NCBI GenBank assembly: GCA_030693825.1 | Contig: JAUXZV010000023.1 | Coordinates: forward strand, 38,984-102,983 | DNA length: 64,000 bases | Direction: 5' to 3' | Origin: Myxococcales bacterium | Lineage (GTDB): Bacteria; Myxococcota; Myxococcia; Myxococcales; Myxococcaceae | Part shown: piece by piece, positions 8,333 through 58,439 of the stretch | How the letters are laid out: each line of letters starts with the position of its first letter | How positions within the stretch are numbered: position 1 is the stretch's first letter | Program-made: the position numbers and the translations under genes | The notes under the pieces: generated by a model | What the model was told of the DNA's origin: nothing | Databases searched by the model: none | Seen by the model: the letters and a program-made list of their open reading frames with translations, nothing else

Positions 8333-8447
8333 ATCGAACGTCTACTCCGGCCCCGGTGGAAGGGAACTTCTGCACACACCACCAGAGTACCGCCTCGGGA
8401 ACCCGACCTGGACGTTGGTGTCGAGAGGTCCACGGAAGGCGGTACCC

Positions 8448-9740
8448 ATGTCGACGACGGCGTTGGCCATTTCGGTGCGGTGGGGAGATCGGCTGATCAG
8501 CTCGCACGTGCTGCGCGCGCACGACAAGCGGGTCTTCTCGCTGGGCGGCGCTCCCGGCAGTGACGTGCCCGTGCCTCGTGCAGGGCAGGCCTCGTTCTCG
8601 TTCGGCGGTGATGGGCCGGTGGTGCACTTCACCGATGGCGTGCGCGGCCAGGTGTTCCGCAACGGTGAGACCGAGCTGCCGATGTCGGACGTGATTCACC
8701 GCGGGCTCGCGCATGAAGAGAAGGAAGGGTGGACGTTGCCCCTCGGCCGCCGCGATGGCGTGGTGCTCGAGTTCGGGAACGTCGCGGTCGAGGCGTGGCC
8801 GATGAAAGCGCCGCTGCGCGTCGGGGTGATGAACGCCGTGTGGGACTACCGCTGGCTCAACGTGTTGATGGCGACGGTGATGGTCGCGTTGCTCCTCGTG
8901 CTGCGCTTCGAGCTGTTCGCGATGGAAGGTGACGACGTCGATGATGACGGCGTGTCGGCGTCGGCGGTGACGCTGCGGCGCGTGCTGGTGACGGCCGAGA
9001 AGCCGCCGAAGCTGCAGCGCGCAGTCGTCGAGCAGGCGCCCGAACGCCTCAAGCAGCAGAAGCAGGCTGCTGCCCAGGGCAGCCCGAAGCTGAAGCCCAC
9101 GCCGGTGACGCACGGTGAAGGCGGGCCGCGCGCCGTCGGTCCCGACATTCGCAAGCTCTTCGCAGGACTGGGCGGGCAGGGCGTGATGGGCAACGGCGGG
9201 CTCGCGAAGGAGCTCACCAACGCGCTCGGCAACGTCGTCGGAAACTCCGATGGGCTCGGTGGCATCAGGCTGCGCGGCACCGGCGGTGGTGGCGAGCTCG
9301 GCGGTCCGCTCCGCATCGGCGGCATCGGCCTCAAGGTGGGGCCTCCGGGTGGTGGGCCGGACTACACGTTGAAGAAGTCGGAAGGTCTGGGGCCCGAGCT
9401 CGACATCACCCCGCCGGACATCTCCTGCGCTGCGGTGGGCTGCCTCGACAAGGAGCTCATTCGCCGCATCGTGCGCGAGCACCTCGGCCAGGTGCGCTAC
9501 TGCTACGAGCAGCTGTTGCCGCGCATGCCGAACCTGAACGGCCGCGTCGTCGTGAAGTGGCACGTGACGGGTGGCGGCATCGTCGATGCGTCAGAGGTCG
9601 TCTCATCGACGGCGCAGAGCGCAGAGCTCGGCGCCTGTCTCGCGGGCCGCGTGCGCACCTGGCGCTTCCCTGCAGCGAAGCAGGCCGAGGCGGGCTTCAC
9701 GGTCTCGTACCCGTTCGTCTTCAAGCGCTCGGGCCAGTGA
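8448..9740 (+). CDS. AgmX/PglI-like gliding-motility protein (FHA-like N-domain, TM helix, Gly-rich linker, AgmX/PglI C-terminal domain)
   Basis: The ATG at 8448 gives a 430-aa protein. It has a hydrophobic TM segment (WLNVLMATVMVALLLVLRF) and a Gly-rich low-complexity linker. The C-terminal block LDKELIRRIVREHLGQVRYCYEQ...VKWHVTGGGIV matches the AgmX/PglI TonB-C-like domain. The annotated 7632 start is an antisense-overlap artefact. Confidence 0.6.
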   Translation: MSTTALAISVRWGDRLISSHVLRAHDKRVFSLGGAPGSDVPVPRAGQASFSFGGDGPVVHFTDGVRGQVFRNGETELPMSDVIHRGLAHEEKEGWTLPLGRRDGVVLEFGNVAVEAWPMKAPLRVGVMNAVWDYRWLNVLMATVMVALLLVLRFELFAMEGDDVDDDGVSASAVTLRRVLVTAEKPPKLQRAVVEQAPERLKQQKQAAAQGSPKLKPTPVTHGEGGPRAVGPDIRKLFAGLGGQGVMGNGGLAKELTNALGNVVGNSDGLGGIRLRGTGGGGELGGPLRIGGIGLKVGPPGGGPDYTLKKSEGLGPELDITPPDISCAAVGCLDKELIRRIVREHLGQVRYCYEQLLPRMPNLNGRVVVKWHVTGGGIVDASEVVSSTAQSAELGACLAGRVRTWRFPAAKQAEAGFTVSYPFVFKRSGQ

Positions 9741-9744
9741 CGCG

Positions 9745-10440
9745 TCAGAACGCGGGGCCGACCGTGAAGCGCAGCATCGGCTGCGGCCCCCACATGCCCA
9801 TGCCCGGCCGCTGAAACCCTGGCAGCAGCATCACGCTGGTCTGCGGCTGAATGCCGAGCACGCGCACGCTCGTGTCGGGCGTCGGCTGGTTCCATACCTG
9901 CAGCCCTGCGCCGATGGACAACGTGAGCGCTCCTTTCGGGCGAAACACGTAGCCGAACATCGCGCCGGGCCCGACGAGGAGCGTCGACGCTGGAGAGAAC
10001 CAGAACACCGAGCCCTGCACCGCCAGAAACGGGCCCTCGAGCAGATGGTCGCCGACGTAGACGCGCAGGCCGAGGTCGAAGCCCACCTGCGGAATGAGGC
10101 TCGCGCCGAGCGCACCGAACACCGTCACCGTCTTCGAGACGGCCTTCTCGAGCTCGAACGAGAGGTGCGTCGCGAACAGGCTCAGCGGAGAGAAGTGGAG
10201 AATCGCCGTGCGCTCGGGCTCGCTCGGCGTCTCTTTCGGTGGAGGCGCGGCGACGGGCACGTCGACGGGAACGTCGCTGGTGAAGACCGGTGGCGTGGAG
10301 AGTTCGCGAACGCCGGCGTCGACGGGATTCGCGATGACGGTGACTGGCGGTGGCGGCAGCGGCGTCGTCGGCGAGTCGGCGTTCACCAGCGGCGGTTGGG
10401 TCGCTTGAGTCAGCAGCACGGTGATGAGGAGCGCTCCCAC
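9745..10440 (-). CDS. Hypothetical secreted / outer-membrane protein with C-terminal Phe
   Basis: 231 aa. Pro-rich N-terminal region, then alternating hydrophobic beta-like segments ending in ...RFTVGPAF. It converges on the agmX-like gene. Confidence 0.45.
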   Translation of the reverse strand: MGALLITVLLTQATQPPLVNADSPTTPLPPPPVTVIANPVDAGVRELSTPPVFTSDVPVDVPVAAPPPKETPSEPERTAILHFSPLSLFATHLSFELEKAVSKTVTVFGALGASLIPQVGFDLGLRVYVGDHLLEGPFLAVQGSVFWFSPASTLLVGPGAMFGYVFRPKGALTLSIGAGLQVWNQPTPDTSVRVLGIQPQTSVMLLPGFQRPGMGMWGPQPMLRFTVGPAF

Positions 10441-10543: not shown

Positions 10544-11962
10544 TCAGCTCGGAGCGACCTTCTCTTCACGCTGCGGGTGCACGCCGAGCTCGTTCATCAG
10601 CCGGTGCAGATACGTGCGCTGCAGGCCCAGCTCGCGCGCGGCCTGGCTGACGTTGCCGTTGGTGCGCTGGAGCGTCTCGGCGACCAGCTCGGTCTTGAAC
10701 TGCAGCACCTCGTCATGAAACCCGGCGCGCCGCCGCGTGCGGGCCGAGAGAATGGCGAGCTCCCTCGGCAGGTGCGCGAGCGAGAGCCCTCCAAGCGCGA
10801 GCGCGCGCCGGAGCACGGCCTCGAGCTCGGCGACGTTGCCCGGCCAGCCGTACCGCTCGAGCGCCGAGAGCACCGAGGGCGAGACGGTGAGAGACGTTCC
10901 CAGCTTCGAGATGAGCGAGTCGGCCAGCGCCGCGACGTCTTGCGGGCGTGCGCTCAACGGAGGCAGCGTCACCTGCACGACGCCCACCGCCGCGGCGACG
11001 CTCGGCTCGAGTGGCCCTCGCGTGGTGCTGACCCAGAACACGTCGGGCCTGGTGCGCATCAGCTCCACCAGCTCGTCGACGGTGGAGGCGGACGCGCGCT
11101 CGAGGTGCTCGAGCACCAGCGTGCCGGTGAAGCCCTTGCGCAAGAGCCCCTTCACGGTCGTCACGCCGTCGCGTGCCTCGAGGCTGACGAAGGGCGTGCG
11201 CAGAAAACCTCCAGCGCGGTGCAGGTGCCGAGACAGGTGCGTCGCGCCCGCGCCTTGCGGGCCGCTGATGAGCGTCGGGAGGCGCTTGGAGGCAGAGCGC
11301 TCCACCACGGCGGCGACCGCCCGCATCGCCTCGGAGTCTCCGATGAGCGGCGACTCGGGACACGACACCTCGAGCGCCTGCCACGCGCGCTGCAAGGCCT
11401 CGGCGTCGGCTTCGCTCGAGCGCGAGAAGTGAATGAGCTGCTCGACGAGCAGCTGCATCAGGTCGGCGGCGATGCGCACCTCGCGCACGTTGAGTGACGG
11501 CGTCTGACGAAGCTGCGAGAGCGCCTCGTCGAAGCCCGGCGCCCAGCCCTGTCGTGCCGCGCGATGGGCGACGGCCTGTTCTTCTTCGAAGACGTGCTCG
11601 GCGCGCATGAAGCCGCAGGTGGCGATGACGCCGAGGAACTGGCCGTCGACGACGATGGGCGCTCCGAGGGTCTGCAGGCCGATGTGACAGGGCTTCTGCG
11701 TGAAGTCGCCCGACGACAGCCGCTTCGCCGCGAACAGCGCGGTGCCCGCCGACAGGCACGCCTTCATGCCCTTCTTCCGGTCGGTGCAGATGCGCGTACA
11801 CAGCGCGTTGTTCGTCGGCATGTACTGCCCCGACGGAATGCCCTCGACCCGCGCCTTCGGAGAGACGAACAGGAACGTCAGGCCCAGGCTGTCCTTCACC
11901 TTCTCGGTCAGCTTCCGAACCACCGGGTGCCGGGACAGCGCGTCGAGGTCGAGCTCCGCCAT
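10544..11962 (-). CDS. Sigma-54 activator (bEBP)-like transcriptional regulator with PocR-like sensor domain; ATPase motifs degenerate
   Basis: ATG at 11962 (MAELDLD), 472 aa. The N-domain carries a C-x-x-I-C...C pattern (ALCTRICTDRKKGMKACL). The central AAA+ domain has YGWPGNVAELE and a C-terminal Fis-type HTH (NGNVSQAARELGLQRTYLHRLM). Walker A reads GPQGAGAT with no Lys, Walker B reads LVLEHL, and GAFTGA is absent. The ORF-track extension to 13165 is low-complexity and I rejected it. Confidence 0.75.
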   Translation of the reverse strand: MAELDLDALSRHPVVRKLTEKVKDSLGLTFLFVSPKARVEGIPSGQYMPTNNALCTRICTDRKKGMKACLSAGTALFAAKRLSSGDFTQKPCHIGLQTLGAPIVVDGQFLGVIATCGFMRAEHVFEEEQAVAHRAARQGWAPGFDEALSQLRQTPSLNVREVRIAADLMQLLVEQLIHFSRSSEADAEALQRAWQALEVSCPESPLIGDSEAMRAVAAVVERSASKRLPTLISGPQGAGATHLSRHLHRAGGFLRTPFVSLEARDGVTTVKGLLRKGFTGTLVLEHLERASASTVDELVELMRTRPDVFWVSTTRGPLEPSVAAAVGVVQVTLPPLSARPQDVAALADSLISKLGTSLTVSPSVLSALERYGWPGNVAELEAVLRRALALGGLSLAHLPRELAILSARTRRRAGFHDEVLQFKTELVAETLQRTNGNVSQAARELGLQRTYLHRLMNELGVHPQREEKVAPS

Positions 11963-12152
11963 GGGCGTGGTGTATCTCAGGGATGACAGTGTGCGGAAGG
12001 GCCTCGAGGGTGTGGAGTCTGTCCTCAGCCAGAGGACGACTGCGTGCGCCTCGACGTGCCAGGCGCCAGGCTGCGCGCAGGTCGGGAGCGCCCAACAGCC
12101 TGAATCACTTGATGAAAGTGCCTGGCCGCCGGCTTGCTTTACGTCACGTCCG

Positions 12153-13376
12153 ATGCGAGCACTCCTGTTCTCATTCGTCGTGTTCGCGGCCTGCGCGCCG
12201 GGGCAGATCATCATGCCGCCGCCCGCGCCGGTCGAGCCGCCCGCGCTGACGCGGGTGACCGTCACGCCTGTCGACACCACGCGTCCGATGTCGTCGACGG
12301 TGATGTCGTCGGTCTCTGCGGTGGGGCTGTCGCTGGTCTCGGGCCAGGTCGCGGTCGTCGCCATCGACGGCGTGGCCGTTCGCACCGGCACCACGATGAC
12401 GCCGGTTCCCGTCGGTCCGATGGGCGCTGACTCCCTCGGCACGGTGCGCCTCATCGGCCGTCGCGGCGCGGCGTCGCTCTGGCTGACGTCGACGGGCGTG
12501 TTCCTCGAGCGCGCGGGCCGGCTGCTCCGCTCGCCCATCTCTGACTCGTTGCCGCTGCCACAGGTGAAGGCCATCGACGTGGTGGGCGAGGGTGACGCCG
12601 AGACGTGGTGGGTGCGCACCGACGCTGCGCTGTTGCGGGTGTCGGGCGGCACCCTCGACTCCATCGTGCTCGAGGACCCGAACGGCAGCGGCCTGGTGAA
12701 GGCCGTCGTCGGACGTGACGCGTCGACCGCGGTGGTCGTGCGAGGCGAGCGCCTGTACCTCGTCGAGGTCGCCGCCCCGAAGGTGACCGTGCTCGCGAAG
12801 GGCCTCGGGGCCGTGACGCAGAGCGCGCGCCTGGGTGATGGCCACATCGTCTTCGCCACCACCGACGGCCTGGTGCGGGTGGCGCCGTCGAACGACGTCT
12901 CGCTGATGGTCTTCGGAGCCGCCGCTGCCGTGAGCGACGTCGCCGTCGATGGTGACGGCGCGCTGGTGCAGTCGAACGGCCAGCTGTTCTCGATGCTGGT
13001 CGACGAGGTGAAGGTGCTCGGCGACGTCGCGGCGCCAGTGGTGAGCGGCGTGGTGCGAGATTCCGCTGGCGCCATCTTCACCCTCGACGGGCAGACGCTC
13101 GAGCGCCTCGCGACGACGGCCGAGGAGCAGCCGGTCGTCTTCGCCGACGTGAAGCCCTTCTTCACGGCGCACTGTGTGAGCTGCCACCGCTCGGGCGCGA
13201 ACTACGCACCCATCATCGACTTCGCCACCTACGCCAAAGCGAAGCAGTGGGCCGTGCAGTCGTTGGCCCGCGCCGAGAACGGCGACACGCCGATGCCTCC
13301 TGCGAGCTCGGGCCTGCTGCGTCCCAGCCAGTACGCCGTGCTCGCGCGGTGGGTGCAGGGAGGGATGTTGCCATGA
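12153..13376 (+). CDS. Lipoprotein with C-terminal PSCyt1-type cytochrome-c-like domain (CxxCH)
   Basis: Signal peptide plus lipobox (VVFAAC). The C-terminus FADVKPFFTAHCVSCHRSGANYAP carries a CxxCH heme motif in the PSCyt1 context. Its stop overlaps the next gene's start (ATGA). Confidence 0.65.
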   Translation: MRALLFSFVVFAACAPGQIIMPPPAPVEPPALTRVTVTPVDTTRPMSSTVMSSVSAVGLSLVSGQVAVVAIDGVAVRTGTTMTPVPVGPMGADSLGTVRLIGRRGAASLWLTSTGVFLERAGRLLRSPISDSLPLPQVKAIDVVGEGDAETWWVRTDAALLRVSGGTLDSIVLEDPNGSGLVKAVVGRDASTAVVVRGERLYLVEVAAPKVTVLAKGLGAVTQSARLGDGHIVFATTDGLVRVAPSNDVSLMVFGAAAAVSDVAVDGDGALVQSNGQLFSMLVDEVKVLGDVAAPVVSGVVRDSAGAIFTLDGQTLERLATTAEEQPVVFADVKPFFTAHCVSCHRSGANYAPIIDFATYAKAKQWAVQSLARAENGDTPMPPASSGLLRPSQYAVLARWVQGGMLP

Positions 13377-29812: not shown

Positions 29813-30835
29813 ATGTCACATCGGCTCTTCCGTCAGCTCGTCCTGGTCAGTGCGTTGTCCTCGTGTAGCGCGGTCATCCCCGTGGCTGGCACCGACGCCG
29901 GCTCCGTCGTCGATGCGATTGACGATGTGGACGCTGGTGCCGATGCCGGAGTCGTCGTCGACGCGGGCGTGGTGCCTGACGCTGGAGTCGATGCTGGCAC
30001 TTCAGGGCCCGACGCTGGCGCGGCCGACGCAGGCGTCGATCCGCTCGTCGCGATGCGGCCGTTCGACGTGACGGTGCCCGTGGGCTACCGGCCTGATCAA
30101 CCCGTGCCGCTGGTGGTGGTGCTCCACGGCTACACCGCGACGGCGCAGACGCAGGACCTGTACTTCGGCCTCTCCCGGCTGGCGCAGTCGCGCACCTTCC
30201 TCGTCGCGCTGCCGAACGGACTTCGCGACGACACCCTGCAGCAGTACTGGAACGCGACCGACGCGTGCTGCGCCTTCGGGAAGACGAACGATGACGTCGC
30301 CTATCTCACCGCCGTCATCCGTGACGTGCAGCGCCGGTTTGCAGTCGACCCGAGGCGCATCTTCCTCGTCGGGCACTCGAACGGCGGCTTCATGTCGCAC
30401 CGGCTCGCATGCGACCGCTCGAACCTCATCGCCGGCATCGTCGCGCTCGCGGGGAACACCTGGGCCGACGCCTCGAAGTGCAACCCGACCGACCCCGTCG
30501 CGGTGCTCCAGATTCACGGCACGCTCGACCCTGTCATTGCGTACAACGGCGGGGCGACGGTAGGGCAGCCGCCATATCCGTCTGCGCAAGACTCGGTGCG
30601 CTCGTGGGGCGCGAAGAACCGCTGCACCGGGGCCGGTCTGACCAGCATCGGTGGAGACCTCGACCTCGTCACCGCGCTCCTTGGCGACGAGACGAAGCGT
30701 GAAGGCTTCTCGGGCTGCCCGGCCAACGCCGCGGCCGAGCTGTGGACGATTCGCGGCGCGGGCCACCTGCCGCTCATCAGCGCCGCGTTCTCCGAGCGCC
30801 TCTACACGTGGCTGCTCGCGCACCCGAAGCCGTAG
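29813..30835 (+). CDS. PHB-depolymerase-family esterase (alpha/beta hydrolase) lipoprotein
   Basis: MSHRLFRQLVLVSALSSCS lipobox, then a DAG-repeat linker. The esterase core carries VVVLHGYTATAQ and the nucleophile elbow GHSNGG. Confidence 0.75.
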   Translation: MSHRLFRQLVLVSALSSCSAVIPVAGTDAGSVVDAIDDVDAGADAGVVVDAGVVPDAGVDAGTSGPDAGAADAGVDPLVAMRPFDVTVPVGYRPDQPVPLVVVLHGYTATAQTQDLYFGLSRLAQSRTFLVALPNGLRDDTLQQYWNATDACCAFGKTNDDVAYLTAVIRDVQRRFAVDPRRIFLVGHSNGGFMSHRLACDRSNLIAGIVALAGNTWADASKCNPTDPVAVLQIHGTLDPVIAYNGGATVGQPPYPSAQDSVRSWGAKNRCTGAGLTSIGGDLDLVTALLGDETKREGFSGCPANAAAELWTIRGAGHLPLISAAFSERLYTWLLAHPKP

Positions 30836-30836
30836 C

Positions 30837-32987
30837 TCACGCGCCTTTTCGTTTCAGCGTGGCGGCGGCGAGGTCGACACCGGTCGGTCCGGCTGGGAGC
30901 GCGGCGAGCAACCGAGACGCGACGTCGACCACGCTCTCTCCACCGAGGATCGCAAGCGGTCCCAGGTGCTGCGTGAGCGACGCGGCGAGCTGCTGATTCC
31001 CGAGCGACTTCAGCGTGGCGATGAGCTCGGGCTGCATCGACTCCATCTGCGACCGGAACGCGTTGACCTGCGCCGTCAGCGCGCGCTCGTCGACCTCGGC
31101 CGTCCGCGCCTTCGCCAGGGTCTGCGCCACGCTCGCCACCTCCAGCGCGTCAGCGTCGGTCTTCGCCTTGCCCAGCACCTCGATGCGCGTCGCCTCGACC
31201 TTGCCCTCTGCCTTCGCCGCCGCGAGCTGACGTCGCGCCGCTTCGAGCGCCAGCTCCGCCTCCTGCGTCTGGCGCTGCGCTTCGAACACGGCGCGGTCGA
31301 CCGTGTGCTTGGCCTGCTCCGTCAACAACCGCAGCCCTTCTTTGCGGCGCGCGACCTCTGACGTGATGGCGCTGCGCTGCGCGTCGGTGAGCAGCTCGTC
31401 GACGTCACCATCGAGGATCTGCACCTCGAGCACCTCGACGTCGTAGACGAGCATGCCGTTCTCTTCGAACTCGCGGCCTGTGCGCTTGTCGCCCTTCTTC
31501 TCGCCCAGCACCGCGCCCCGCAGAATCTCGGTGCTCGAGGCGTGAAAGCGGTCGATGGGCGTGGCCCGAACCGCGGCGCGCACGATGCTGCCCAGGTGGT
31601 CGCACAAGAGGGCGACGTAGTTGCTGACGTTGAACCACCGCGCGTCATCAGAGCCCGGGCTGCTCGAGAAGCTCACCCGGTACGACAGCCGCACCTCGAG
31701 CTGAACGTGATCGCTCGTGCGCACCTCGAGCCGGTCAGACACCTTGTTCCCGTCGACGAGGAGAAAGCAGGTCGGCAACAGCGCCGCGTCGGTCTTCGGC
31801 GTTCCCGTCGAGAGCGACAGCACGCCGAGCTCCTCGTCGAAGTCGAGGATGCGCACCTGCGGACCCTTCACGACTTCACGCCTCGTCTTCGCCGTCACCA
31901 GGACTGCGTAGCTGGGCGGAATGGTGATCGCCGGAGCCCGCGTGCCGTCGTAGCCTTTCAGGTTCCACCGCTTGATCGTCTCCGCATCCAGTGGCCGCTT
32001 CATCAGCTGCACGCGTGTCGGGTCAGGCAGATACGCGGCGGGGCCGGCGATGGTGCGAATCTGGCCTGTCGCGAGCTCACGCACCGAGATGGCTTCTTTC
32101 TCCGCGAGCGGAATCGACGACACCTCGCCCAGCACCTCGAGTGACTCGGTCGGGAAGAAGAGGTCTTCGCGGCCGGCGAGGAAGAGCTCCTGGCCTGCCT
32201 GGTATGTGCCCGGCGGCACCTGCTCTCCCGCCTTCGCCTCGAACGTCTTCACGACCCGTATGTGCAGGCCCTTGTCTTTGCGCATCGCGTACGCGGCGAA
32301 CACACGCGCGCCGGCGATGGTGTGAAACTCCTCCCACGCCTCGGGGAAGACGACGCCCGGCCCACGCACGAAGCGCCGCTGGCCGCGTGGCCCTCGCAGC
32401 ACGCAGTACTGACCGTCGACCAGAGTGACGGCGTTGCGAACGTAGGAACCGGTGCCGTCTGGCAGCACCTCGAGCCCGGTCTTCGGCAGGTAGAAGCTCA
32501 CCTCGCTGCCTTTGACGATGCGCTCACTGCCGATGGGCGCGGGATCTCCCTCGACCCGATCGGACACCCGCACGCGCAGGTACTGGTCTTCGTACAGCTC
32601 GTGCCCTGCGACGACGCGCGCCTTCTGACCGGGCCAGAGCGGAAACGACGCCGGCCCTGCCACGACGACGCGCCTTCCATTGAGCAGCTCGATCGCCGAA
32701 TTGTTGCCCTTCACCGGCTTCACCGCCGCGTCCTTCGCGGGGTTCTCGAGCACGACGTACTGGGTGCTCGATGCCGCGATGAAGGGACACACGCCCGACG
32801 CACCTTCTTCTCCTCGCACCGGCAGGAACCGCTCGTTCTTGAAGTCGACGAGGCGCTCGGTGTTCGAGAGCGAGATCTTCGTGGGCCCGACGTACAGCAC
32901 GATGTCGCCCTTGGTGAGGTCCTGCACGTAGGCGTACTCGTTCGAGGCGATGAGGATGTCGCGTTCGCGGACGTCACGTTCGGCCAT
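30837..32987 (-). CDS. Major vault protein (MVP) homolog
   Basis: 716 aa. The N-terminus YAYVQDLTKGDIVLYVGPTKISLSNTERLV parallels eukaryotic MVP [32 protein letters not shown]. Repeated MVP-repeat modules follow. The shoulder region ARWFNVSNYVALLCDHLGSIVRAAVRATPIDRFHASSTEILRGAVLG parallels MVP [46 protein letters not shown]. A long Ala/Glu/Lys-rich cap-helix segment is also present. Confidence 0.85.
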   Translation of the reverse strand: MAERDVRERDILIASNEYAYVQDLTKGDIVLYVGPTKISLSNTERLVDFKNERFLPVRGEEGASGVCPFIAASSTQYVVLENPAKDAAVKPVKGNNSAIELLNGRRVVVAGPASFPLWPGQKARVVAGHELYEDQYLRVRVSDRVEGDPAPIGSERIVKGSEVSFYLPKTGLEVLPDGTGSYVRNAVTLVDGQYCVLRGPRGQRRFVRGPGVVFPEAWEEFHTIAGARVFAAYAMRKDKGLHIRVVKTFEAKAGEQVPPGTYQAGQELFLAGREDLFFPTESLEVLGEVSSIPLAEKEAISVRELATGQIRTIAGPAAYLPDPTRVQLMKRPLDAETIKRWNLKGYDGTRAPAITIPPSYAVLVTAKTRREVVKGPQVRILDFDEELGVLSLSTGTPKTDAALLPTCFLLVDGNKVSDRLEVRTSDHVQLEVRLSYRVSFSSSPGSDDARWFNVSNYVALLCDHLGSIVRAAVRATPIDRFHASSTEILRGAVLGEKKGDKRTGREFEENGMLVYDVEVLEVQILDGDVDELLTDAQRSAITSEVARRKEGLRLLTEQAKHTVDRAVFEAQRQTQEAELALEAARRQLAAAKAEGKVEATRIEVLGKAKTDADALEVASVAQTLAKARTAEVDERALTAQVNAFRSQMESMQPELIATLKSLGNQQLAASLTQHLGPLAILGGESVVDVASRLLAALPAGPTGVDLAAATLKRKGA

Positions 32988-33129
32988 GGTGGTGCTCCCG
33001 TGCTGCGAGTGGTGCAGGGGAGCTGTGCGAGTCGGGTGCCAGCTGCGGAGCCACCGACTGCGCGGGGTTGTCAGCGCGCTGCGCCACGACGGCGCAAAGC
33101 CAGAGACCAGGCGCTCCAGACCGGAGCGC

Positions 33130-33627
33130 TCAGGGCGCGACGACGTCGATGGCCCGGTCGCTCATCGGCTCGAAGCCTCCGTCCGGCACGCGGCGCTCGA
33201 TGGCCATACACGTGAGCTGCACGCGTGTGCCGCCGTCGACCGGCTGCGCGCTCGCCGTGGTGACGTTCAGCTTCACGGTCGCCAGGCCTCCATCGGCGTC
33301 CAGAAACAGGGCGAGGTCCGTCAGGCTGCAGTCAGGGTCGTAGCGAGGGAGCACCCCAGGCCGAAGGCCCGTCGTGAACTGAAGCTCGAGGCGACCGCCT
33401 TCATGCGTGACGGAGACAAAGGTGCCACCGTCGACGACGCGCGCGACGTCTGGGGCGTTGGGGTTACCGCGCCCTCCAGTCACCGCTGCGAAGGACTCTC
33501 CGAGGCGAGCGCCAATGGCGCCCCCAATGGAGGTTCCGATGGCGTTGCCGAGGCACTCGCCGAAGCGGGGAGAGAGGCAGGCCGTGGCGAGGACCGGCAG
33601 GAAGATGAAGAAGGGTGCGAAGCGCAT
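33130..33627 (-). CDS. Small hypothetical lipoprotein
   Basis: MRFAPFFIFLPVLATAC lipobox, 165 aa with a Gly-rich segment. It lies 142 bp upstream of the MVP gene on the same strand. Confidence 0.5.
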   Translation of the reverse strand: MRFAPFFIFLPVLATACLSPRFGECLGNAIGTSIGGAIGARLGESFAAVTGGRGNPNAPDVARVVDGGTFVSVTHEGGRLELQFTTGLRPGVLPRYDPDCSLTDLALFLDADGGLATVKLNVTTASAQPVDGGTRVQLTCMAIERRVPDGGFEPMSDRAIDVVAP

Positions 33628-33768
33628 GAGCGGCCTTCGAGCAAACGGCGCGCCAGCACGAAGGCCGACAGAGGCGTCGTCGAAAACCCGATTGGTTGAC
33701 TCGAACCGCACGAGCCCAACGCCCGATTCTCTGACAGGTCTGTCACGGGTCGGCGCGGCATCGCGCCC

Positions 33769-34290
33769 GTGGAAGCGCTGCAGCAACCGAGCGCGTTGTC
33801 CGGCATGGTCCATCATTCTCGACTGGCGTGGAGGTCCATCGTGTCGCTGTGTCTGAGCTGTGGCCTCTGTTGTGACGGCACGCTGTTTCGTCGAGTCCCG
33901 CTCGAGCCCGGTGAAGGCGCCCGGCTCGGGGTCCGCGTTCGGCTCTCGGAAGAAGACGGCTCGCTCGTGCAGCCGTGTCGCGCGCTCTCGGAGCGGAAGT
34001 GCGGCGTCTACGAAGACCGCCCAGCGGTGTGCCGGAAGTTCCGCTGCCTCGCGCTCGAGCAGCTCGAGGCGGGCGAGCTCACCGAGGATGAAGCGCAGGA
34101 GCTGGTGAATGAAGCGCTCGCGCGTCGCCGCCGGCTCGCCGAGGTGATGGGCTTCGAGGACGAGGTGCATGCGCTCGCCCTCGCCCGCGCTCAGGCCGCC
34201 GCAGGCCTGCTGGGAGAAGAGGCCACCGCCGCCCTGGAGCGCTTGAGCCGCACGCTCTTCTTCCTGAACCTCACGGTTCAGCCGGGCTGA
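33769..34290 (+). CDS. YkgJ-family cysteine-cluster protein (UPF0153, CxxCxxCC)
   Basis: LCLSCGLCCDGTLF plus downstream Cys residues. 173 aa. Confidence 0.7.
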   Translation: MEALQQPSALSGMVHHSRLAWRSIVSLCLSCGLCCDGTLFRRVPLEPGEGARLGVRVRLSEEDGSLVQPCRALSERKCGVYEDRPAVCRKFRCLALEQLEAGELTEDEAQELVNEALARRRRLAEVMGFEDEVHALALARAQAAAGLLGEEATAALERLSRTLFFLNLTVQPG

Positions 34291-35366
34291 GCCGACCGCG
34301 CGACGGCTTCGGCGATGCACCGCTCTTCGTTCGTCGGCACCACCAGCACCTTCGCGCGCGACGACGGCGTCGAGCTGACGAGCGCGTTCGACGTGTTGGC
34401 CGCCGCGTCGACCGACAGGCCCAGCCACGCGAGGTGTCCGACGATGCGCGCCCGAATCACGGCCGAGCGCTCTCCGATGCCTGCGGTGAAGACGAGCGCG
34501 TCGAGGCCACCCAGCGCCGTCGCGAGTGACGCCACCTCGCGAGCGCAGCGCCTGACGAAGTACTCCACGGCGTCTGAGGCTTCTTGCGTGTCGGTCGCGA
34601 GCAGCGTGCGCATGTCGTTGGACACGCCAGAGAGTCCCTTCAACCCCGACTCCTTGTAGAGCAGCGCCTCGAGTGCTCCGAGGGTCATGCCCTTCTGATT
34701 GAGCAGGTAGAGCAGCACGCCGGGGTCGATGGTGCCCGTGCGGGTGCCCATCGGAAGGCCGTCGATGGTCGAGAAGCCCATCGTCGTCGCGACGCTGCGC
34801 CCGTTCGACATGGCGCACATCGACGCGCCGCTCCCGAGGTGCGCGACGACGACCTTCCCGGCGGCGACCTCTGGGGCGAGCTCGCGCAGCCGCGTCGCGA
34901 TGAACTGGTACGAGAGCCCGTGAAAGCCGAAGCGCCTGATGCCGTCGTCGTAGTACCGCCGGGGCAGCGCGTACGTCTCTTCGAGGAAGTCGTGGGTGCG
35001 GTGAAACGCAGTGTCGAAGCAGGCGAGCTGCCGCACGCCCTGAAACGCGGCGCGCGCGGCCTTGATGCCCGAGACGTTGTGCGGCTGATGGAGCGGCGCG
35101 AGCGGCACGAAACCCTCGAGCAGGCCCAGCGCCTCGTCATCGATGAGGACCGGCGCCGAGAAGCGCGTGCCGCCGTGCACGACGCGGTGACCGACCCCGA
35201 CGACCGTGACGCCTGCCGCCTTCGTCACCTCGAGCGCCTTCGCCATCGCCACTGCGCCCGTCTCTTCGATGGTGCCGCGGGTGAGCTCGGTGACCCCATC
35301 GCCAGAGAACAGCGCGTACTTCACCGTCGAGCTGCCCGCGTTGAGCGTGAGAATCGCGGGCGTCAT
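34278..35366 (-). CDS. ackA: Acetate/propionate kinase
   Basis: 362 aa. LNAGSSTVKYALF, HLGSGASMCA and TAGIGE motifs are present. The start overlaps the pta stop (ATGA). Confidence 0.9.
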   Translation of the reverse strand: MTPAILTLNAGSSTVKYALFSGDGVTELTRGTIEETGAVAMAKALEVTKAAGVTVVGVGHRVVHGGTRFSAPVLIDDEALGLLEGFVPLAPLHQPHNVSGIKAARAAFQGVRQLACFDTAFHRTHDFLEETYALPRRYYDDGIRRFGFHGLSYQFIATRLRELAPEVAAGKVVVAHLGSGASMCAMSNGRSVATTMGFSTIDGLPMGTRTGTIDPGVLLYLLNQKGMTLGALEALLYKESGLKGLSGVSNDMRTLLATDTQEASDAVEYFVRRCAREVASLATALGGLDALVFTAGIGERSAVIRARIVGHLAWLGLSVDAAANTSNALVSSTPSSRAKVLVVPTNEERCIAEAVARSAQPG

Positions 35367-36763
35367 GGCGTCGGAGGCACCGCCGACTTCCCGGTCCGGC
35401 GGAAGTGGGCCTCGAGCACGGCGACGGCGCAGCTCGCGAGGCGGGTGCTGTCGTCGTCGGCGCGGCTGGTGAGCATGATGGGCACCTTCGCGCCCACCAC
35501 CAGCCCGGGGCCTTCCGCGTGCGCCACGAAGGCGAGCTCCTTCGCCAGCATGTTGCCCGCCTCGATGTTCGGCACCATCAAGACGTTCGCGCGGCCTGCG
35601 ACGAGTGACGTGATGCCCTTGGTGCGCGCGGCTTTGAGCGACAACGCGTTGTCCATCGCGAGGGGGCCGTCGACGATGCCGCCGACGATCTGCCCGCGCT
35701 CCGCCATCTTCGACAGCACCGCCGCGTCGAGGGTCGACTGCATCGCGGGGTTGACGATCTCCACCGCCGACAGCACGCCCACTTTGGGCTGCGTGAAGCC
35801 CAGCGCCTGCGCGAGGAAGATGGCGTTCTGCACGATGTCGACCTTCTCTTCGAGCGTCGGCGCGATGTTGATGGCGGCGTCGGTGACGAGCAGCAGCTCG
35901 GGCAGGCCCGGCACGTCCATCACGAAGACGTGGCTGATGCGGCGCACCCCTCGCAGCCCGCCGTCTTTGCGCACCATGGGCTTGAGCAGCTCGTCGGTGT
36001 GGAGCTTGCCCTTCATCACCGCCTGCACCACGCCCTGGTTCGCGAGCGAGACGGCCTTCTCGGCGGCAGCGATCGGGCCCAGGGCCTCGATCAGCTCGAG
36101 CCCATCGAGCGAGGCGCCGAGGTTCTTCGCCACCGCGCGAATCTTCGCCACGTCACCAATCAGCACCGGCCGGATCAGCTCGTGCTTGAAGCTGAGCAGT
36201 GCCCCGCCGAGCGACGCGTCGTCTTCAGGGCACACCACCGCGGTCGCCAGCGGCTCGAGCGGCTCGCACGCCTTCATCAGCCGCTCGATGTGCTGGTGAC
36301 GCACGACGGTGATGGCGGGCAGCTCGTCATCGGAGACCTCGATGCGCGTCGAGGGCGCCGTCACTTCGGCCTCTCCCACCGCGACGACCCGTCCGTCGGC
36401 CGTGGTGACCTGGGTGTCGAAGGTGACGCGGCCATCACCGTGTTTCGCCTTCACCGTGACCTTCGCCGTGACGGTGTCGCCGACGCGCGCGCGGTCGGGG
36501 AAGCGGAAGTTCTGGGCGAGGTAGCGCGTCCCCGGGCCGGGGAGCCGATTGCCGAGCACTGCCGAGACCTGCGCGCCGGCCCACAAGGCGGGCGCCACGG
36601 CGTCACTCTTGCCGTCTCCATCGGAGTCGAAGGTCGGCAGCACCAGCGGGTTCGAGTTGCCGCTCGCGCTCGCGAAGACCCAGAGGTCATTCGCGGTCAC
36701 CTGTCGTTGAATCGACGCGGTCGCGCCGATGACGAGCTCGTCGTACGTCGTGTTTCGGGCCAT
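35363..36763 (-). CDS. pta: Phosphate acetyl/butyryltransferase with N-terminal MaoC-like hotdog domain
   Basis: 466 aa. The N-terminal ~150 aa form a MaoC dehydratase-like fold. The C-terminal PTA_PTB domain carries GGALLSFKHELIRPVLIGD ... VPNIEAGNMLAKEL. Confidence 0.85.
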   Translation of the reverse strand: MARNTTYDELVIGATASIQRQVTANDLWVFASASGNSNPLVLPTFDSDGDGKSDAVAPALWAGAQVSAVLGNRLPGPGTRYLAQNFRFPDRARVGDTVTAKVTVKAKHGDGRVTFDTQVTTADGRVVAVGEAEVTAPSTRIEVSDDELPAITVVRHQHIERLMKACEPLEPLATAVVCPEDDASLGGALLSFKHELIRPVLIGDVAKIRAVAKNLGASLDGLELIEALGPIAAAEKAVSLANQGVVQAVMKGKLHTDELLKPMVRKDGGLRGVRRISHVFVMDVPGLPELLLVTDAAINIAPTLEEKVDIVQNAIFLAQALGFTQPKVGVLSAVEIVNPAMQSTLDAAVLSKMAERGQIVGGIVDGPLAMDNALSLKAARTKGITSLVAGRANVLMVPNIEAGNMLAKELAFVAHAEGPGLVVGAKVPIMLTSRADDDSTRLASCAVAVLEAHFRRTGKSAVPPTP

Positions 36764-52960: not shown

Positions 52961-53887
52961 ATGCGTGCAGCAGAGCAGGCAGTCGTGACGTTGGCGGCGG
53001 GTCAGCACGGCGTCTTCAGCGTCGAGCAGGCCGTCGAGCGCGGCATGTCGGTCGATCAAGTGAAGCGCCGCGTGCGCGCCGGGCGCTGGAGACGCGTGTT
53101 CCCTGGCGTCTGCGTCATCGCAGGGAGCCCGGAGACGTGGCGGCAACGTCTCAAAGCGAGCGCGCTGTGGTTCGGCCCACGGTGTGTCTTCTCGCATCGC
53201 ACCGCCGCGGCGCTCTGGGGACTCTCTGGTTTCTCCGATGACGCGGGGCCGATCGTCATCGCCTCGACCCGGCACGTGAGCGCCCCTTCCGGTGTCCGCG
53301 TGTTTCGAATGGGCGCGCTGCTGCCGCGAGAGCTGGCGACGGTCGGTGGCCTTCGAGTCACCTCGATCGAGCGAACGTTGCTCGACCTCGCCGCCGAAGA
53401 GCGTGAGGCCGACGTCTCGACTGCGCTCGACGAGGCGCTTCGGCGAAAGCTCACGACCCCGGAGCGACTGACGGCGTTCATCGACCGTGCAGGAGGGACG
53501 CCAGGCATTCGGGTGCTGCGCCGGCTCACCCAGCGGCGCGCCGGGCTCGGCGGGGTGCCTGAGAGCGAACTCGAGTCGCGAGTTCTGGAGCTGCTCGATG
53601 AGCACGGCATGCCGCGACCAGTGCTCCAGCAGAAGGTGACGGCGCGCAGCCGGCGCTACCGGCTCGACTTCAGGTTCCCCGGAACGGCGGTCGTCCTCGA
53701 GGCCGATGGGTATGCGTGGCACTCCTCTGTCGACGCGTTCGAGCGAGACCGGCAACGAATCAACGCGCTCACGGTGAGAGGCTACCGGGTGCTGCGGTGG
53801 ACGTGGGCGGCCCTTCATGACCGGCCCGACGAGCTCATCGACGAGCTTCGAAAGGTGCTGTCGGCCCCGCACTCGCGGGCTGCGTGA
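52961..53887 (+). CDS. DUF559 (Vsr/restriction-endonuclease-like fold) protein with N-terminal AbiEi_4-like HTH domain
   Basis: 308 aa. The N-terminal GVFSVEQAVERGMSVDQVKRRVRAGRW and the C-terminal YRLDFRFPGTAVVLEADGYAWHSS...RGYRVLRW are typical of DUF559. Confidence 0.65.
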   Translation: MRAAEQAVVTLAAGQHGVFSVEQAVERGMSVDQVKRRVRAGRWRRVFPGVCVIAGSPETWRQRLKASALWFGPRCVFSHRTAAALWGLSGFSDDAGPIVIASTRHVSAPSGVRVFRMGALLPRELATVGGLRVTSIERTLLDLAAEEREADVSTALDEALRRKLTTPERLTAFIDRAGGTPGIRVLRRLTQRRAGLGGVPESELESRVLELLDEHGMPRPVLQQKVTARSRRYRLDFRFPGTAVVLEADGYAWHSSVDAFERDRQRINALTVRGYRVLRWTWAALHDRPDELIDELRKVLSAPHSRAA

Positions 53888-53925
53888 CCATTCTCCGTCT
53901 CGTGGTGCGAGGACCGTCGGACGCG

Positions 53926-56868
53926 CTACGCGAACAACTCCAGCAGGTCGTCCTTCGTCAGCGCGCCGGCCGACTGACCATCTCCGAGCGCTGCTTCGAA
54001 CAGCGCACGCTTCTTGTCCTGCAACGTGAGGATGCGCTCCTCGACTGTTCCCTGCGAGACGAGGCGATAGACGAACACCGGCTTGTCCTGCCCGATGCGG
54101 TGCGCCCGGTCGGCGGCCTGGGCTTCGACGGCCGGGTTCCACCACGGGTCGACGAGGAAGACGTGATCCGCCGCCGTGAGTGTGAGGCCGGTGCCGCCCG
54201 CCTTCAGGGAGATGAGCATCACCGGCGGGCCCGCCTCCGTCTGGAACTCGGCCGTCACCTCGCCGCGATTCGGGGTCGAGCCGTCGAGCCTCGAGAAGCG
54301 CACGCCCGCCGCGGTCAGCTCGGGCTCGATGAGGTCGAGCAGCTTCGTCCACTGCGAGAACACGAGCGCCTTGTGCCCATCGGCCACGGCCGTCGCGAGC
54401 GCATCGACGAGCGTCTGCACCTTCGACGAGGTCTTCGCCAGCTGGCCTGGAATCAGCGCCGGGTGACACGCGGCCTGACGCAACCGCAGCAGCGCCTCGA
54501 GCGCCTTGAGCACGCTCCCGCCCTGGCCGAGCAGCTTCACCACCTCATCCTTCGTGGCAGCGAAGATGGCGTCGTACGTGGCGCGTTCGCGTTCATCGAG
54601 CGTCACCGTGCGCACCACCTCGGTGCGCGGCGGCAGGTCCTTCGCGACGTCTTTTTTCAACCGGCGCAGGACGAACGGCTTGAGCCGCTTCCTCAACTCG
54701 AGCCTCGCGGTGGCGTTCCCCTCGGCGATGGGGCGCGCGAGCGTCTCGTCGAACTGACGCCGGCCACCGAGCAGACCCTGGTTGCTGAAGTGCATCAGGC
54801 TCCAGAGTTCGTCGAGGCGGTTCTCGACGGGCGTTCCCGACAGCGCGAGCCGGAACGGAGCCTTCAGCGCGAACGATGCCTTCGCCGCCTGGCTCTCGGG
54901 GTTCTTGATGTTCTGCGCTTCGTCGAGCACCAGCGCGCTCCACTCCCGCGCCTGCAGCTGCACGAGGTCGAGCCGCAGAATCGCGTACGTCGTCACCGTC
55001 ACGTCGACGTCGTCGAGGGCGCGGTTGGGCCCATGGTACGCGTTGACGGTGAGCGAGGGCCTGAAGCGCTTGAGCTCGGCGAGCCACGTCGGCAACACGC
55101 TCGTCGGGCACACCACCAGCGACTTCTTCCCCAGCACGCACGCCGTCTGCAGCGTCTTGCCCAGGCCCATGTCGTCGGCCAGCACGCCACCCAGGCCCGC
55201 GCGCTGAAGGAACTGGAGCCACGCCACGCCCTGCACCTGGTACGGCCGCAGCGTCGCGGTGAGGTCGGCGGGGAGCGTGGGCTCAGGCAGCGACTCGAAC
55301 CCGTCGGCCAGCGGCTTGAGTCTGTCGAGGCCCAGCGGCGTCGGCTGCTCGAGCGAGTCGCAGAGCTCGGCGAGGCGGGGGAGCGCGTGGTTGGCGAGCG
55401 TTCCGTTCTCCTGCTTCGCGGCGAGCAGCGCAGCGATGCGGGCGCCCTGCGCTTCGAGGAACTCAGAGGGCAGCTGCGCCCAGCCACCACCTTCGATGGG
55501 CACCAGCCCGTAACCATCTTCCCAGGCCCGCAGCACCGCGGCGCCGTCGACCTGCGTCGGCATTCCGGCCGTGCCACCCACCAGCTCGAAGTCGAAGGAG
55601 AACGCGACCGACGGCACGCCCGCGCCGGTCCGGTCGTCGAGCTTCATGCGGGGAATGAGCTTCAGGTCGGGGCTCAGCTTGCGCGCCGCATCGCCCGTCA
55701 ACCCGCCGCGCCACTTTCGCAGCGAGTCGGCGAACCGAATGGCTTCGGGACCGTTCACCGTCATGCGCCGACCAGGCACGAGGTTCAGCGTGTCGCGCAG
55801 GTGATGAAGCAGCCGCTGCTCCTGCGCTTCGTCACGAACCGGCACCGGCCCCCGCAAGTACACCATGCGGCCTGCGTCGATGCGCACCGTCGGCGGCGCG
55901 CCGTAGACGAGCGTCGGGAGCACCGAGAGGCCCTGCTCCAGCTGATTGACCTCGAGCACGACGCGCGGCTCGAGGCGCGCGTCGACCCGTGGCAACCGCG
56001 AGCTCGTGACCTCGACGGAGAAGCGGCGCGCGAGCTCCGGCACCACGGTCGCGCTCACCTCACCGGCCTGCGCCGCCGAGAACGTCTTCACCACCGGCAG
56101 CTTCTCGAGCCACGCGCCGGTGAAGGACTGCTCCCCGAGGCGGAAGAGCGTGTCACCCGCGACGGCGACGCCGGCCCCGAGCACTTCGGTCACGCGTGAG
56201 TCCTTCGCGACCGTCACCACGATGCTGTCGGCGTCGTCCTTCACCGTCACGCGTGGGAGCAGCAGCTCCGAGGCGATGGCCACCGGCCGCCCATCGAGCA
56301 GCACGGTGCGGCTGGGCTGCAACACGCCGAGCACTGCGTCGACCCGCTCGGGCGGCAACGCGAGCCGTGTCTTCTTCTCGAGCAGCCGGTCGGCCTGAAG
56401 GTCGTGCTGCTCCACCTGCAGCCGTTTCGCGGTGGCCGGGTTCGCGAGCGCCGCGGCGAGTGAGTCGAGCGGCGTCTCGACGCCCTCGGGCGTCACCACG
56501 GCGCGCTGAACCTGCAGCCCGCTCTCGACGCGCACGATGCGGTAGACGACGCGCGAGTACCGGCTCTCGACGGACGCCAGCGTGGTGCCCGACTCGGCCG
56601 CTTCTTTGAGCGTGATGGCCGCAGCGACCGAGTGCTCGCAGGGGTCGACCGGCGCCGGGCAGTTGCACTCCCACGACGAGTCCTTCGGCGTGAGCACCAC
56701 CGTCCAGGGCACTGGCCGGCCGCCTGCCTTCACGCGCAGGACGATCTCGGTGCCATCGGTCGACTCCTGCACCACGGCGCCCGCGCGCGCGAGCTTCACG
56801 CCGTTCGACCAGACGCCTGGCTTGGCTTCTCCGCGCACCGCCTCGAGTAACGTCACCGCATCCGACAT
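53926..56868 (-). CDS. SNF2-family helicase with N-terminal SWIM zinc finger
   Basis: 980 aa. The SWIM C-x-C-x(n)-C-x-H motif ([14 protein letters not shown]) is present. The SNF2_N domain carries the DEAQ box [11 protein letters not shown] and the ATP-binding motif [11 protein letters not shown] helicase-C domain ([21 protein letters not shown]) follows. Confidence 0.9.
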
Positions 56869-57974: not shown

Positions 57975-58409
57975 TCACTCCATCAGCTTCTGCATCGACG
58001 CCTCACTGCGCTGCAGGCCCACGGTGGCCAGCACTGCGCGCGCCGACGGGTTCTTCGCCAGGACTGCGTCGACCGCGGCGCGGGGAAACGACACCACCTC
58101 GAGCTCCGTCACCGCCGTGACGGTCGCCTGGCGCTTCGAGCCCGAGAGCATCGCCTGCTCCCCGAAGAAGTGGCCGGCAGAGAGGCGACCGACCTCCTTG
58201 TCCTCGCCAAGGTCATCGAGCGACACCCGCGCTTCACCCTTCGCGAGCACGTAGAGCACGTCGCCTGACTCGCCTTCGCGGCAGAGGACGTGGCCCGCGG
58301 GGAACTTCTGGCGGCCCGAGCGTGAGAGCAGCTCCTTGCGGGCTTCGGGGTCGAGCGCCTCGAAGAGCTTCGACGCTTTGGCCAGCTGGGTGAGATCGAG
58401 GTCGCTCAT
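57975..58409 (-). CDS. Cyclic-nucleotide-binding domain protein (single cNMP-binding domain)
   Basis: 144 aa. The conserved Gly-Glu and Arg-x-Ala in GEGESGDVLYVLAKGE ... FGEQAMLSGSKRQATVTA are present. Confidence 0.8.
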   Translation of the reverse strand: MSDLDLTQLAKASKLFEALDPEARKELLSRSGRQKFPAGHVLCREGESGDVLYVLAKGEARVSLDDLGEDKEVGRLSAGHFFGEQAMLSGSKRQATVTAVTELEVVSFPRAAVDAVLAKNPSARAVLATVGLQRSEASMQKLME

Positions 58410-58439
58410 GAGGAACAGAGTCTACTCCCGACTCCGTCG

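Follow-up and report, generated by a model that had tools for sequence, protein, structure and literature searches.

Does a myxobacterium that carries a homologue of MVP (major vault protein), the shell protein of eukaryotic vaults, make a comparable shell of its own, and does it do so with dedicated partners? The question is raised by a 64-kb stretch of myxobacterial DNA (~69% G+C; "the window" below means this entire stretch), in which an initial annotation had recognized a complete, 716-aa MVP homologue, possibly co-transcribed with a small lipoprotein. We have found that the 716-aa protein is a genuine MVP family member and that its gene stands alone, without a conserved neighbour. The best explanation of the locus, which we consider probable, is a full-architecture, cytoplasmic, shell-forming MVP of Myxococcota, encoded by a stand-alone gene and expressed conditionally from a sigma-54-type promoter. 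What vaults do is among the oldest unanswered questions of cell biology, and their evolutionary origin is disputed, with transfer from a eukaryote to a bacterium, a cyanobacterial source and an Asgard source all under discussion. Bacterial homologues could provide a simple system, free of partners, in which to ask what an MVP shell does.

The existence of bacterial MVPs is already known. A specialist would not be surprised by an MVP homologue in a myxobacterium, and the novelty that the initial annotation had attached to the gene was overstated. Ten bacterial homologues, predicted in silico to fold and dock like MVP, were listed from Corallococcus coralloides (H8MNI3), Plesiocystis pacifica (two), Microscilla, Saprospira, Flexibacter, Herpetosiphon and three cyanobacteria (Daly et al. 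2013; PMC3762200). Homologues from Myxococcales (Enhygromyxa salina), Cytophagales and Oscillatoriales have also been analysed (Sokolskyi 2019; 10.1101/872010), and myxobacterial MVPs are thus part of the literature. For the present protein, particle formation is something that we infer. To our knowledge, what the cited papers do not contain is the clade's architecture with seven repeats, its wide occurrence in uncultured Myxococcota, the lack of a conserved partner, and a conserved, predicted sigma-54 promoter with a predicted leaderless class.

Identity and domain anatomy of the MVP homologue

Genes were called by third-position G+C (GC3), and the locus was compared with 65 related loci (given L numbers below) from GTDB species representatives. 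The MVP gene lies on the reverse strand at 30837..32987. Its open reading frame (ORF) starts with ATG, encodes 716 aa and has a GC3 of 0.87, like the surrounding genes. Identification of the product as a short, seven-repeat form of MVP draws on the ORF call, Pfam, phmmer, profile comparison, AlphaFold and Foldseek. In Pfam, MVP_shoulder (PF11978) matches aa 414-526 at 3.7e-30 (104.8 bits, with the cut-off at 25; positions 3-118 of the 118-position profile). Vault_3 scores above its curated cut-off (3.7e-07), Vault_2 and Vault_4 fall below theirs, and no NCBIfam family model matches the protein. When all PDB chain sequences were searched with phmmer, major vault proteins were the sole significant matches (9e-30), with query residues 198-706 aligned to MVP 293-858. 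A profile of 25 relatives aligned to the MVP of solved vault shells at 7e-53 (profile positions 150-661 to MVP 243-811). Both blocks that the initial annotation had quoted as MVP-like are present: NEYAYVQD...VGPTKISLSNTERLV at aa 16-47, and the shoulder block ARWFNVSNYVALLCDHLGSIVRAAVRATPIDRFHASSTEILRGAVLG at aa 449-495, which phmmer aligns to human MVP residue for residue. The identical protein carries the annotation "hypothetical protein" in a "Myxococcales bacterium" metagenome-assembled genome (MAG).

Structural comparison was based upon an AlphaFold model built from 120 sequences, longer relatives included, which reached a predicted local distance difference test score (pLDDT) of 85.7 and a predicted template-modelling score of 0.60, with residues 10-530 almost all above a pLDDT of 90. 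It replaced a first model from a shallow alignment (pLDDT 64), in which the N-terminus was unresolved. Foldseek matched the second model to rabbit, human and rat vault shells at ~2e-36 (template-modelling score 0.53-0.57, ~22% identity) and to murine MVP R1-R7 crystals at ~1e-16; the crystal alignments, 412-423 columns long, take in everything before the shoulder. The SPFH cage proteins erlin, flotillin, HflK/C, QmcA and stomatin matched more weakly, at ~1e-6 (range 1e-6 to 1e-4). Because vault shells and R1-R7 repeat crystals match structurally, the protein is a genuine member of the MVP family and not merely an SPFH shoulder. A bare SPFH shoulder was the outcome that the initial annotation had set against its own claim; profile and structure comparison found repeats.

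The architecture that was described as reproducing MVP end to end does so for the repeats, the shoulder and the cap helix, with seven repeats in place of nine and with a cap-ring tail that is tentative. Residues 1-413 (31749..32987, reverse strand) form seven beta-sandwich repeat modules, recognized from the strand pattern of the second model and the R1-R7 crystal alignment, at approximately aa 10-72, 76-127, 135-189, 193-235, 239-290, 299-340 and 353-406. In the profile alignment, aa ~187-412 correspond to MVP ~274-519. Modules 4-7 are named here as counterparts of MVP R6-R9, on repeat boundaries that we take to be those of Tanaka et al. 2009. Modules 1-3 show a weak colinear phmmer alignment to R1-R3. 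MVP ~110-240 is without a clear counterpart in the profile alignment, and about two repeats are missing between the counterparts of R3 and R6. When the seven segments were compared by hhalign, only weak similarity was found (best probabilities 66%, 32% and 27%), as is usual between MVP repeats; the number of repeats was therefore taken from the structure and from the mapping to solved MVP. No part of the protein is better conserved than its first 45 residues, which in relatives down to 55% identity show 83-98% identity per 10-residue block to the protein of the window and exceed the shoulder in conservation.

The shoulder, of SPFH/band-7 type, covers aa 414-526 (31410..31748, reverse strand) and is defined by PF11978, by colinearity with MVP 520-646 and by the Foldseek matches to SPFH proteins; in the second model it spans aa 414-524. 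The shoulder leads into a single long cap helix (aa 527-650; 31038..31409, reverse strand), which is 20% Ala with many Glu, Arg and Lys residues and is supported by both models, alignment and composition. The helix spans 527-650 in the second model and 527-659 in the first, and alignments to the MVP cap-helix region cover ~MVP 647-811. The C-terminal segment, aa 651-716 with the stop codon (30837..31037, reverse strand), is tentatively assigned as the counterpart of the cap ring: phmmer aligns aa 654-706 to human MVP 805-858, and P677, L678, A679 and G682 are conserved in the family.

No hydrophobic or transmembrane segment, N-terminal hairpin or lipidation signal was found in the 716-aa sequence. 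The 19-residue Kyte-Doolittle mean peaks at 1.35, and the protein begins with a charged stretch (MAERDVRERD). The homologue is predicted to be cytoplasmic and soluble because of this charged N-terminus and the absence of a hydrophobic segment. The same observations bear on an alternative in which the protein forms a single dome, seated with its open rim against the inner membrane on the cytoplasmic side and fencing off a membrane patch or a membrane protein. Shoulder and helix are structurally the SPFH cage module, as in flotillin, HflK/C, stomatin and erlin, and docking could be through the highly conserved N-terminal module; some eukaryotic vaults contact membranes in situ (PMC13100048). Such a dome is nevertheless unlikely in our view. 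The protein has no membrane-spanning or hydrophobic segment and no lipidation signal, it places seven repeat modules between the SPFH domain and the rim, as in soluble MVP, no NfeD- or FtsH-type partner is encoded nearby, and vault shells are the best structural matches by ~30 orders of magnitude in E-value.

The eukaryotic vault contains further components, for which the window was searched. Rfam 15 at gathering thresholds gave 0 matches to vault RNA, Y RNA or any other RNA family across the 64 kb. A Pfam sweep of ~47 of the 53 predicted genes in the window found no TEP1-like (TROVE/NACHT/WD40) or PARP4-like (PARP, VIT/vWA, MINT) domains, in agreement with the initial annotation, which had seen no TEP1- or vPARP-like partner. 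In the human vault, the MINT domain of PARP4 docks on R3-R4 through Q164, R169, Q172 and D214, and R437, R511 and L517 serve an NAD+ pocket in the shoulder (PMC12280208). The MINT-docking repeats fall where MVP (~110-240) has no clear counterpart here, in the R3-R5 region of the two missing repeats. As for the pocket, R437 lies in the R8 insertion that is missing from the present protein, R511 corresponds to Leu403 and L517 to Leu409. This mapping was made by hand on the phmmer pairwise alignment, anchored on the invariant G395-x-P397-K398, with Leu403 five residues after it. Both known ligand sites of the eukaryotic shell appear not to be conserved, which is consistent with the finding of no PARP partner in the window.

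Predicted promoter and gene neighbourhood

A predicted sigma-54 (-24/-12) promoter, TGGCACCCGACTCGCA, precedes the MVP gene at 33026..33041 on the reverse strand (GG at 33040-33039, GC at 33028-33027). The element is 54 nt upstream of the ATG, with the C of its GC 40 nt from the ATG. A Shine-Dalgarno-like GGGAG (32995..32999, reverse strand), identified by direct reading, lies 7 nt before the ATG and is GGAG in the closest loci. Compared with the consensus TGGCAC-N5-TTGCW, TGGCACCCGACTCGCA has its GG and GC exactly 10 nt apart, and it is the only match to TGGCACN5TYGCW on both strands of the window, where 0.18 were expected. In an intergenic alignment of the seven closest loci, only CTGGCACC-N-GACTCGCAC forms an invariant island, and the rest of the spacer has diverged. 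Fifty-five Myxococcota loci had enough upstream sequence for a wider comparison. A relaxed motif (GGYAY-N5-YYGC, sense strand, within 120 nt upstream) occurs in 33 of them, with 0.0135 expected per 120 nt (P~2e-47), and the strict motif in 20 (0.0005 expected). Several loci have canonical sigma-54 motifs, e.g. GGCACGCGGGTTGCT. Planctomycetota loci instead carry sigma-70-like TTGAC...TAGAnT elements. A consensus scan found no sigma-70-like promoter in 30600-34000 of the window, including the spacer between the MVP gene and the ORF upstream of it.

The Myxococcota motifs occur at two spacings from the start codon. In the first class, to which the clade of the window belongs, 36-41 nt separate the C of the -12 GC from the ATG, and a GGAG Shine-Dalgarno sequence lies in this interval. 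The second class, with a separation of exactly 14 nt, comprises eleven loci, drawn from Myxococcia as well as Polyangia (L008, L012, L042, L047, L048, L050, L055, L057, L059, L060 and L063). A 14-nt spacing leaves no room for a Shine-Dalgarno sequence and puts the predicted start no more than ~2 nt from the ATG, so that the mRNAs of the second class are predicted to be leaderless.

Transcription from sigma-54 promoters requires an ATP-dependent activator, and myxobacteria make wide use of such promoters for genes of development and stress. Since the predicted promoter is of this type, typical of myxobacterial stress, starvation and developmental genes, we infer that expression of the MVP gene is conditional and activator-dependent. 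The conserved element would then be a regulatory handle, through which an activator and its signal could lead to the condition of shell production. Pfam identified two sigma-54 activators in the window, both on the reverse strand: a PocR-sensor type with a degraded Sigma54_activat match (10544-13165), and an FHA-Sigma54_activat-HTH_8 protein (58440-59807) with a cyclic nucleotide monophosphate-binding protein directly after it (pair 57975-59807). The rpoN gene is not in the 64-kb window.

The gene that the initial annotation had proposed as a co-transcribed partner is a 165-aa ORF at 33130..33627 (reverse strand), which does lie 142 bp upstream of MVP on the same strand and has an N-terminus, MRFAPFFIFLPVLATAC, that is lipobox-like by inspection. 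Its GC3 is 0.83, compared with 0.87-0.94 in neighbouring genes. It has no Pfam match, no PADLOC match and no tblastn match in the 65 related loci, and its sole match among 5.8 billion proteins is a 99%-identical copy from the same species. Nearly all of this orphan ORF lies inside a 624-bp segment (33153..33776), delimited by alignment with the nearest relative, L001, which does not have it; MVP is 99% identical between the two loci and the flanking genes 86-98%. The arrangement was seen only in same-species contigs. Because a gene for a CxxCxxCC protein adjoins MVP directly upstream, in divergent orientation, in L001, L004 and L058, the simplest reading of the segment is that it was inserted in the lineage of the window; L002 has neither the orphan ORF nor the CxxCxxCC gene. 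The segment has a host-like G+C of 0.68, no terminal repeats and no other copy in the window or the loci. The last 23 nt of the orphan ORF and its stop codon derive from ancestral intergenic sequence, and it may be a young gene.

These data leave little of the proposed partnership. A functional, co-transcribed pair of MVP and lipoprotein would fit the shared strand, the 142-bp gap and the lack of a convincing terminator between the two genes. None was found there in a consensus scan, and a hairpin after the orphan stop was rejected, since it is no more stable than shuffles (z = -0.54). Read-through transcription is possible in this one strain. As a functional unit, however, the pair is scarcely credible: the orphan ORF is confined to the species, is absent from 65 of 65 related loci and sits on a segment that L001 does not have; MVP has its own conserved predicted promoter and Shine-Dalgarno sequence; and a lipoprotein predicted to be exported would not share a compartment with a cytoplasmic shell protein. 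Judging from the compared loci, the 165-aa ORF may be a real orphan lipoprotein, but it is a neighbour that is not part of a conserved MVP unit and is not an MVP partner.

No other gene takes its place. All-against-all clustering of the flank ORFs of the 65 loci yielded no conserved neighbour, cargo or activator family. The sole large cluster (22 loci) is made up of generic Ser/Thr kinases whose position varies, and it was rejected as a partner. The immediate neighbours of MVP differ in almost every locus, with the upstream gene often divergent, and the neighbours within sub-clades are unrelated secreted or housekeeping proteins. Synteny is confined to the six closest loci, where it takes in the esterase, a 270-aa protein of unknown function, the CxxCxxCC protein, ackA, a MaoC-fused pta and a PEGA lipoprotein. 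The MVP gene therefore stands alone, and because it does so, the shell probably needs no co-encoded partner.

The esterase is the convergent neighbour noted in the initial annotation. It is an alpha/beta hydrolase with a weak Esterase_PHB match (24.8 bits, cut-off 23) and a lipobox-like LSSC, and its gene ends at 30835. Its stop codon (30833-30835) and that of MVP (30837-30839) end one base apart, with no room for an intergenic terminator, and a terminator scan found none between the two stops. On the other side of MVP, the ackA-pta pair occupies 34278-36763 (reverse strand); the phosphotransacetylase has an N-terminal MaoC-like dehydratase domain, and its gene overlaps ackA by 4 nt. At 52985-56856, ~20 kb from MVP, an AbiEi_4/DUF559 (REase_MTES_1575-like) gene lies next to a gene for a 976-aa SNF2-family helicase, and the two may form a small islet that is mobile or related to defence.

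Distribution and descent

The 716-aa protein belongs to a compact, seven-repeat subfamily of ~650-780 aa that is widespread in uncultured Myxococcota, in MAGs of Myxococcaceae, Archangium, Polyangiaceae, Labilithrix, Haliangium and Kofleriaceae. Further members occur in Planctomycetota, Acidobacteriota, one "Clostridia" MAG and one Methanosarcinales MAG. A HMMER search returned 530 cluster representatives (50% identity) at E<1e-30, most of which are 800-980 aa long and 35-40% identical; one is from Candidatus Falkowbacteria. Together with 398 close relatives and many invariant residues, these representatives support selection on the protein.

A neighbour-joining tree, which has no support values and is only indicative, places the protein of the window in a Myxococcaceae/Archangiaceae clade, with Polyangia in a separate clade. 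Sequences from other phyla cluster together with a small number of Myxococcota MAGs, and the long forms branch outside. The nearest relatives are MAGs of Myxococcaceae, Archangiaceae and Archangium, and the host lineage is most likely Myxococcaceae/Archangiaceae; the assignment to Polyangia in the initial annotation was probably wrong. On the question that it had raised of vertical or horizontal origin, the tree suggests mainly vertical descent within Myxococcota, with some inter-phylum transfer. Two full-length relatives come from unexpected hosts, namely L064 (Methanosarcinales MAG, 8001-10280; 39% identity) and L021 ("Clostridia" MAG, 8001-10223; 57% identity), and the organization of L021 is nearly identical to that of the Blastocatellia locus L022. 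Either inter-domain or inter-phylum transfer or mis-binning would account for these two.

The patchy distribution across phyla, and the fact that all carriers found are MAGs, could also be taken to mean that the gene is a horizontally acquired relic, with little or no expression and no assembly of its product. We consider this very improbable. Intact full-length ORFs are present in at least 60 genomes and form coherent Myxococcia and Polyangia clades, many residues are invariant, the predicted promoter is conserved, and a GC3 of 0.87 is typical of host genes.

Huge uncultured phages (462-735 kb) encode MVP homologues of 30-37% identity over 75-83% of the query (LR756500.1, 21414-23363; LR756501.1; LR756503.1, 17320-19041), which extend an earlier report of gut phage MVPs (Santos et al. 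2023; 10.1101/2023.11.10.566534). The 650-780-aa subfamily was not found on IMG/VR viral contigs. These homologues are the main ground for another reading, in which the protein would belong to a module that acts against phages or is related to them, its shell trapping invading particles or nucleotides and its gene having been moved between phyla by phages. The grouping of Planctomycetota and Acidobacteriota sequences with a few Myxococcota MAGs is in line with such movement, and eukaryotic vault components have been linked to NAD+ and immunity (10.64898/2026.05.01.722283). At this locus the reading is quite improbable. Neither the MVP homologue nor its neighbours have a PADLOC match, the flanks are housekeeping genes (pta, ackA, EF-G-like, esterase) and not a defence island, the subfamily has no IMG/VR matches, and the basic residues of the human NAD+ pocket are not conserved (R437 absent, R511 aligned to Leu403; PMC12280208).

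A proposed shell and its known counterparts

The reading that we prefer remains that of a cytoplasmic MVP that forms a shell and is made conditionally. As with eukaryotic MVP and other SPFH proteins, numerous copies would pack laterally. The cap helices would form a helical barrel that closes one end, and the repeats would form the wall of a hollow shell, the seven repeats giving a barrel wall shorter than the mammalian one. The conserved N-terminal module would be the open rim, where two half-shells could pair. In eukaryotic vaults the N-terminal end is the waist where two halves meet, and MVP assembles as a 39-fold half-shell and a 78-mer barrel. Expression would be conditional and would require an enhancer-binding activator. 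Conditional sequestration of bulk cytoplasmic components in a protein-only shell is the most economical guess at a role.

Solved SPFH-fold complexes are ring-shaped cages in which SPFH domains pack side by side and long helices form a barrel, to which MVP adds the repeat wall, and their size has been described by a regression, subunits = 0.1782 x helix length + 10.22 (PMC12624060). For helices of 124-133 residues, as in the two models, the regression would give ~32-34 copies per ring, an extrapolation from other SPFH complexes. For the rat cap helix, which we take to be ~156 residues long, it gives ~38, compared with the observed 39.

Several points weigh against this reading. Oligomerization is deduced from homology only, the monomer models carry no stoichiometry, and the ring size, as said, is extrapolated. 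The C-terminal cap-ring region has low confidence in the second model (pLDDT <50). The sigma-54-type promoter is a prediction, and its -12 element is TCGCA and not the consensus TTGCA (one departure). The two sigma-54 activators lie ~20-25 kb from MVP, and neither is linked to the MVP gene. Searches for partners covered 64 kb of the genome only, and partners could be encoded elsewhere. All 65 related loci are from MAGs. Finally, a search of the literature found no study of assembly, localization or expression, nor any other experimental study, of a prokaryotic MVP, which agrees with the remark in the initial annotation that no bacterial MVP homologue has been shown to form vault-like particles, carry cargo or have a defined function.

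A stronger version of the preferred reading is a true prokaryotic vault: a closed shell of protein alone, in which two half-barrels, each a ~32-34-mer, meet at the very highly conserved N-terminal rim, made through the sigma-54 promoter during starvation, stress or development, and engulfing bulk cargo such as ribosomes. We regard this as possible, if rather doubtful. In Dictyostelium, vaults in situ enclose ribosomes, and a subpopulation of eukaryotic vaults contacts membranes (PMC13100048). These findings suggest ideas and are not evidence for the myxobacterial protein. If a prokaryotic vault of this kind were true, the ancestral function of vaults could be tested in bacteria, free of vault RNA, TEP1 and PARP4.

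Among known systems, encapsulin and other bacterial nanocompartments offer a possible analogy, as self-assembling, protein-only cytoplasmic shells of unrelated fold. Encapsulin cargo genes normally adjoin the shell gene, unlike the MVP gene here, which has no conserved neighbour. The SPFH/band-7 proteins (HflK/C, QmcA, flotillin, stomatin, prohibitin, erlin) share the fold of the shoulder and long helix and presumably the same cage principle. They are membrane-anchored and without a repeat barrel, whereas the 716-aa protein has no anchor and no NfeD or FtsH partner nearby.

Eukaryotic MVP (rat, human and rabbit; PDB 4V60, 9BW5 and 9Z4W) has the same order of beta repeats, SPFH-type shoulder and long cap helix, and tentatively the same cap-ring tail. 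It is soluble and has no membrane anchor, as predicted for the protein described here. The mammalian protein has nine repeats compared with seven here and a cap helix of ~156 aa compared with ~124 aa, and the R8 "keyhole" insertion of eukaryotic MVP has no equivalent. The eukaryotic vault also contains vault RNA, TEP1 and PARP4, none of which was found in the 64-kb window. Unlike its eukaryotic counterpart, the myxobacterial gene lies behind a predicted sigma-54 promoter, and the shell that it would encode is a matter of deduction.

Closer in kind are the prokaryotic homologues. Those already published from bacteria also have MVP repeats, a shoulder and a coiled coil. Most prokaryotic relatives outside the subfamily are the longer forms of 800-980 aa, whereas the ~650-780-aa subfamily of the present protein was found in our searches only in MAGs. 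Asgard archaeal MVPs have a cap helix, a shoulder and five repeats, and were modelled as decamers, for which a closed cup was suggested (PMC12962969, 2026). A reduced number of repeats is common to the Asgard proteins and to ours, with five there and seven here. The present protein is bacterial and not archaeal, and its much longer helix would, by the extrapolated regression, correspond to a ring of ~32-34 subunits in place of ten.

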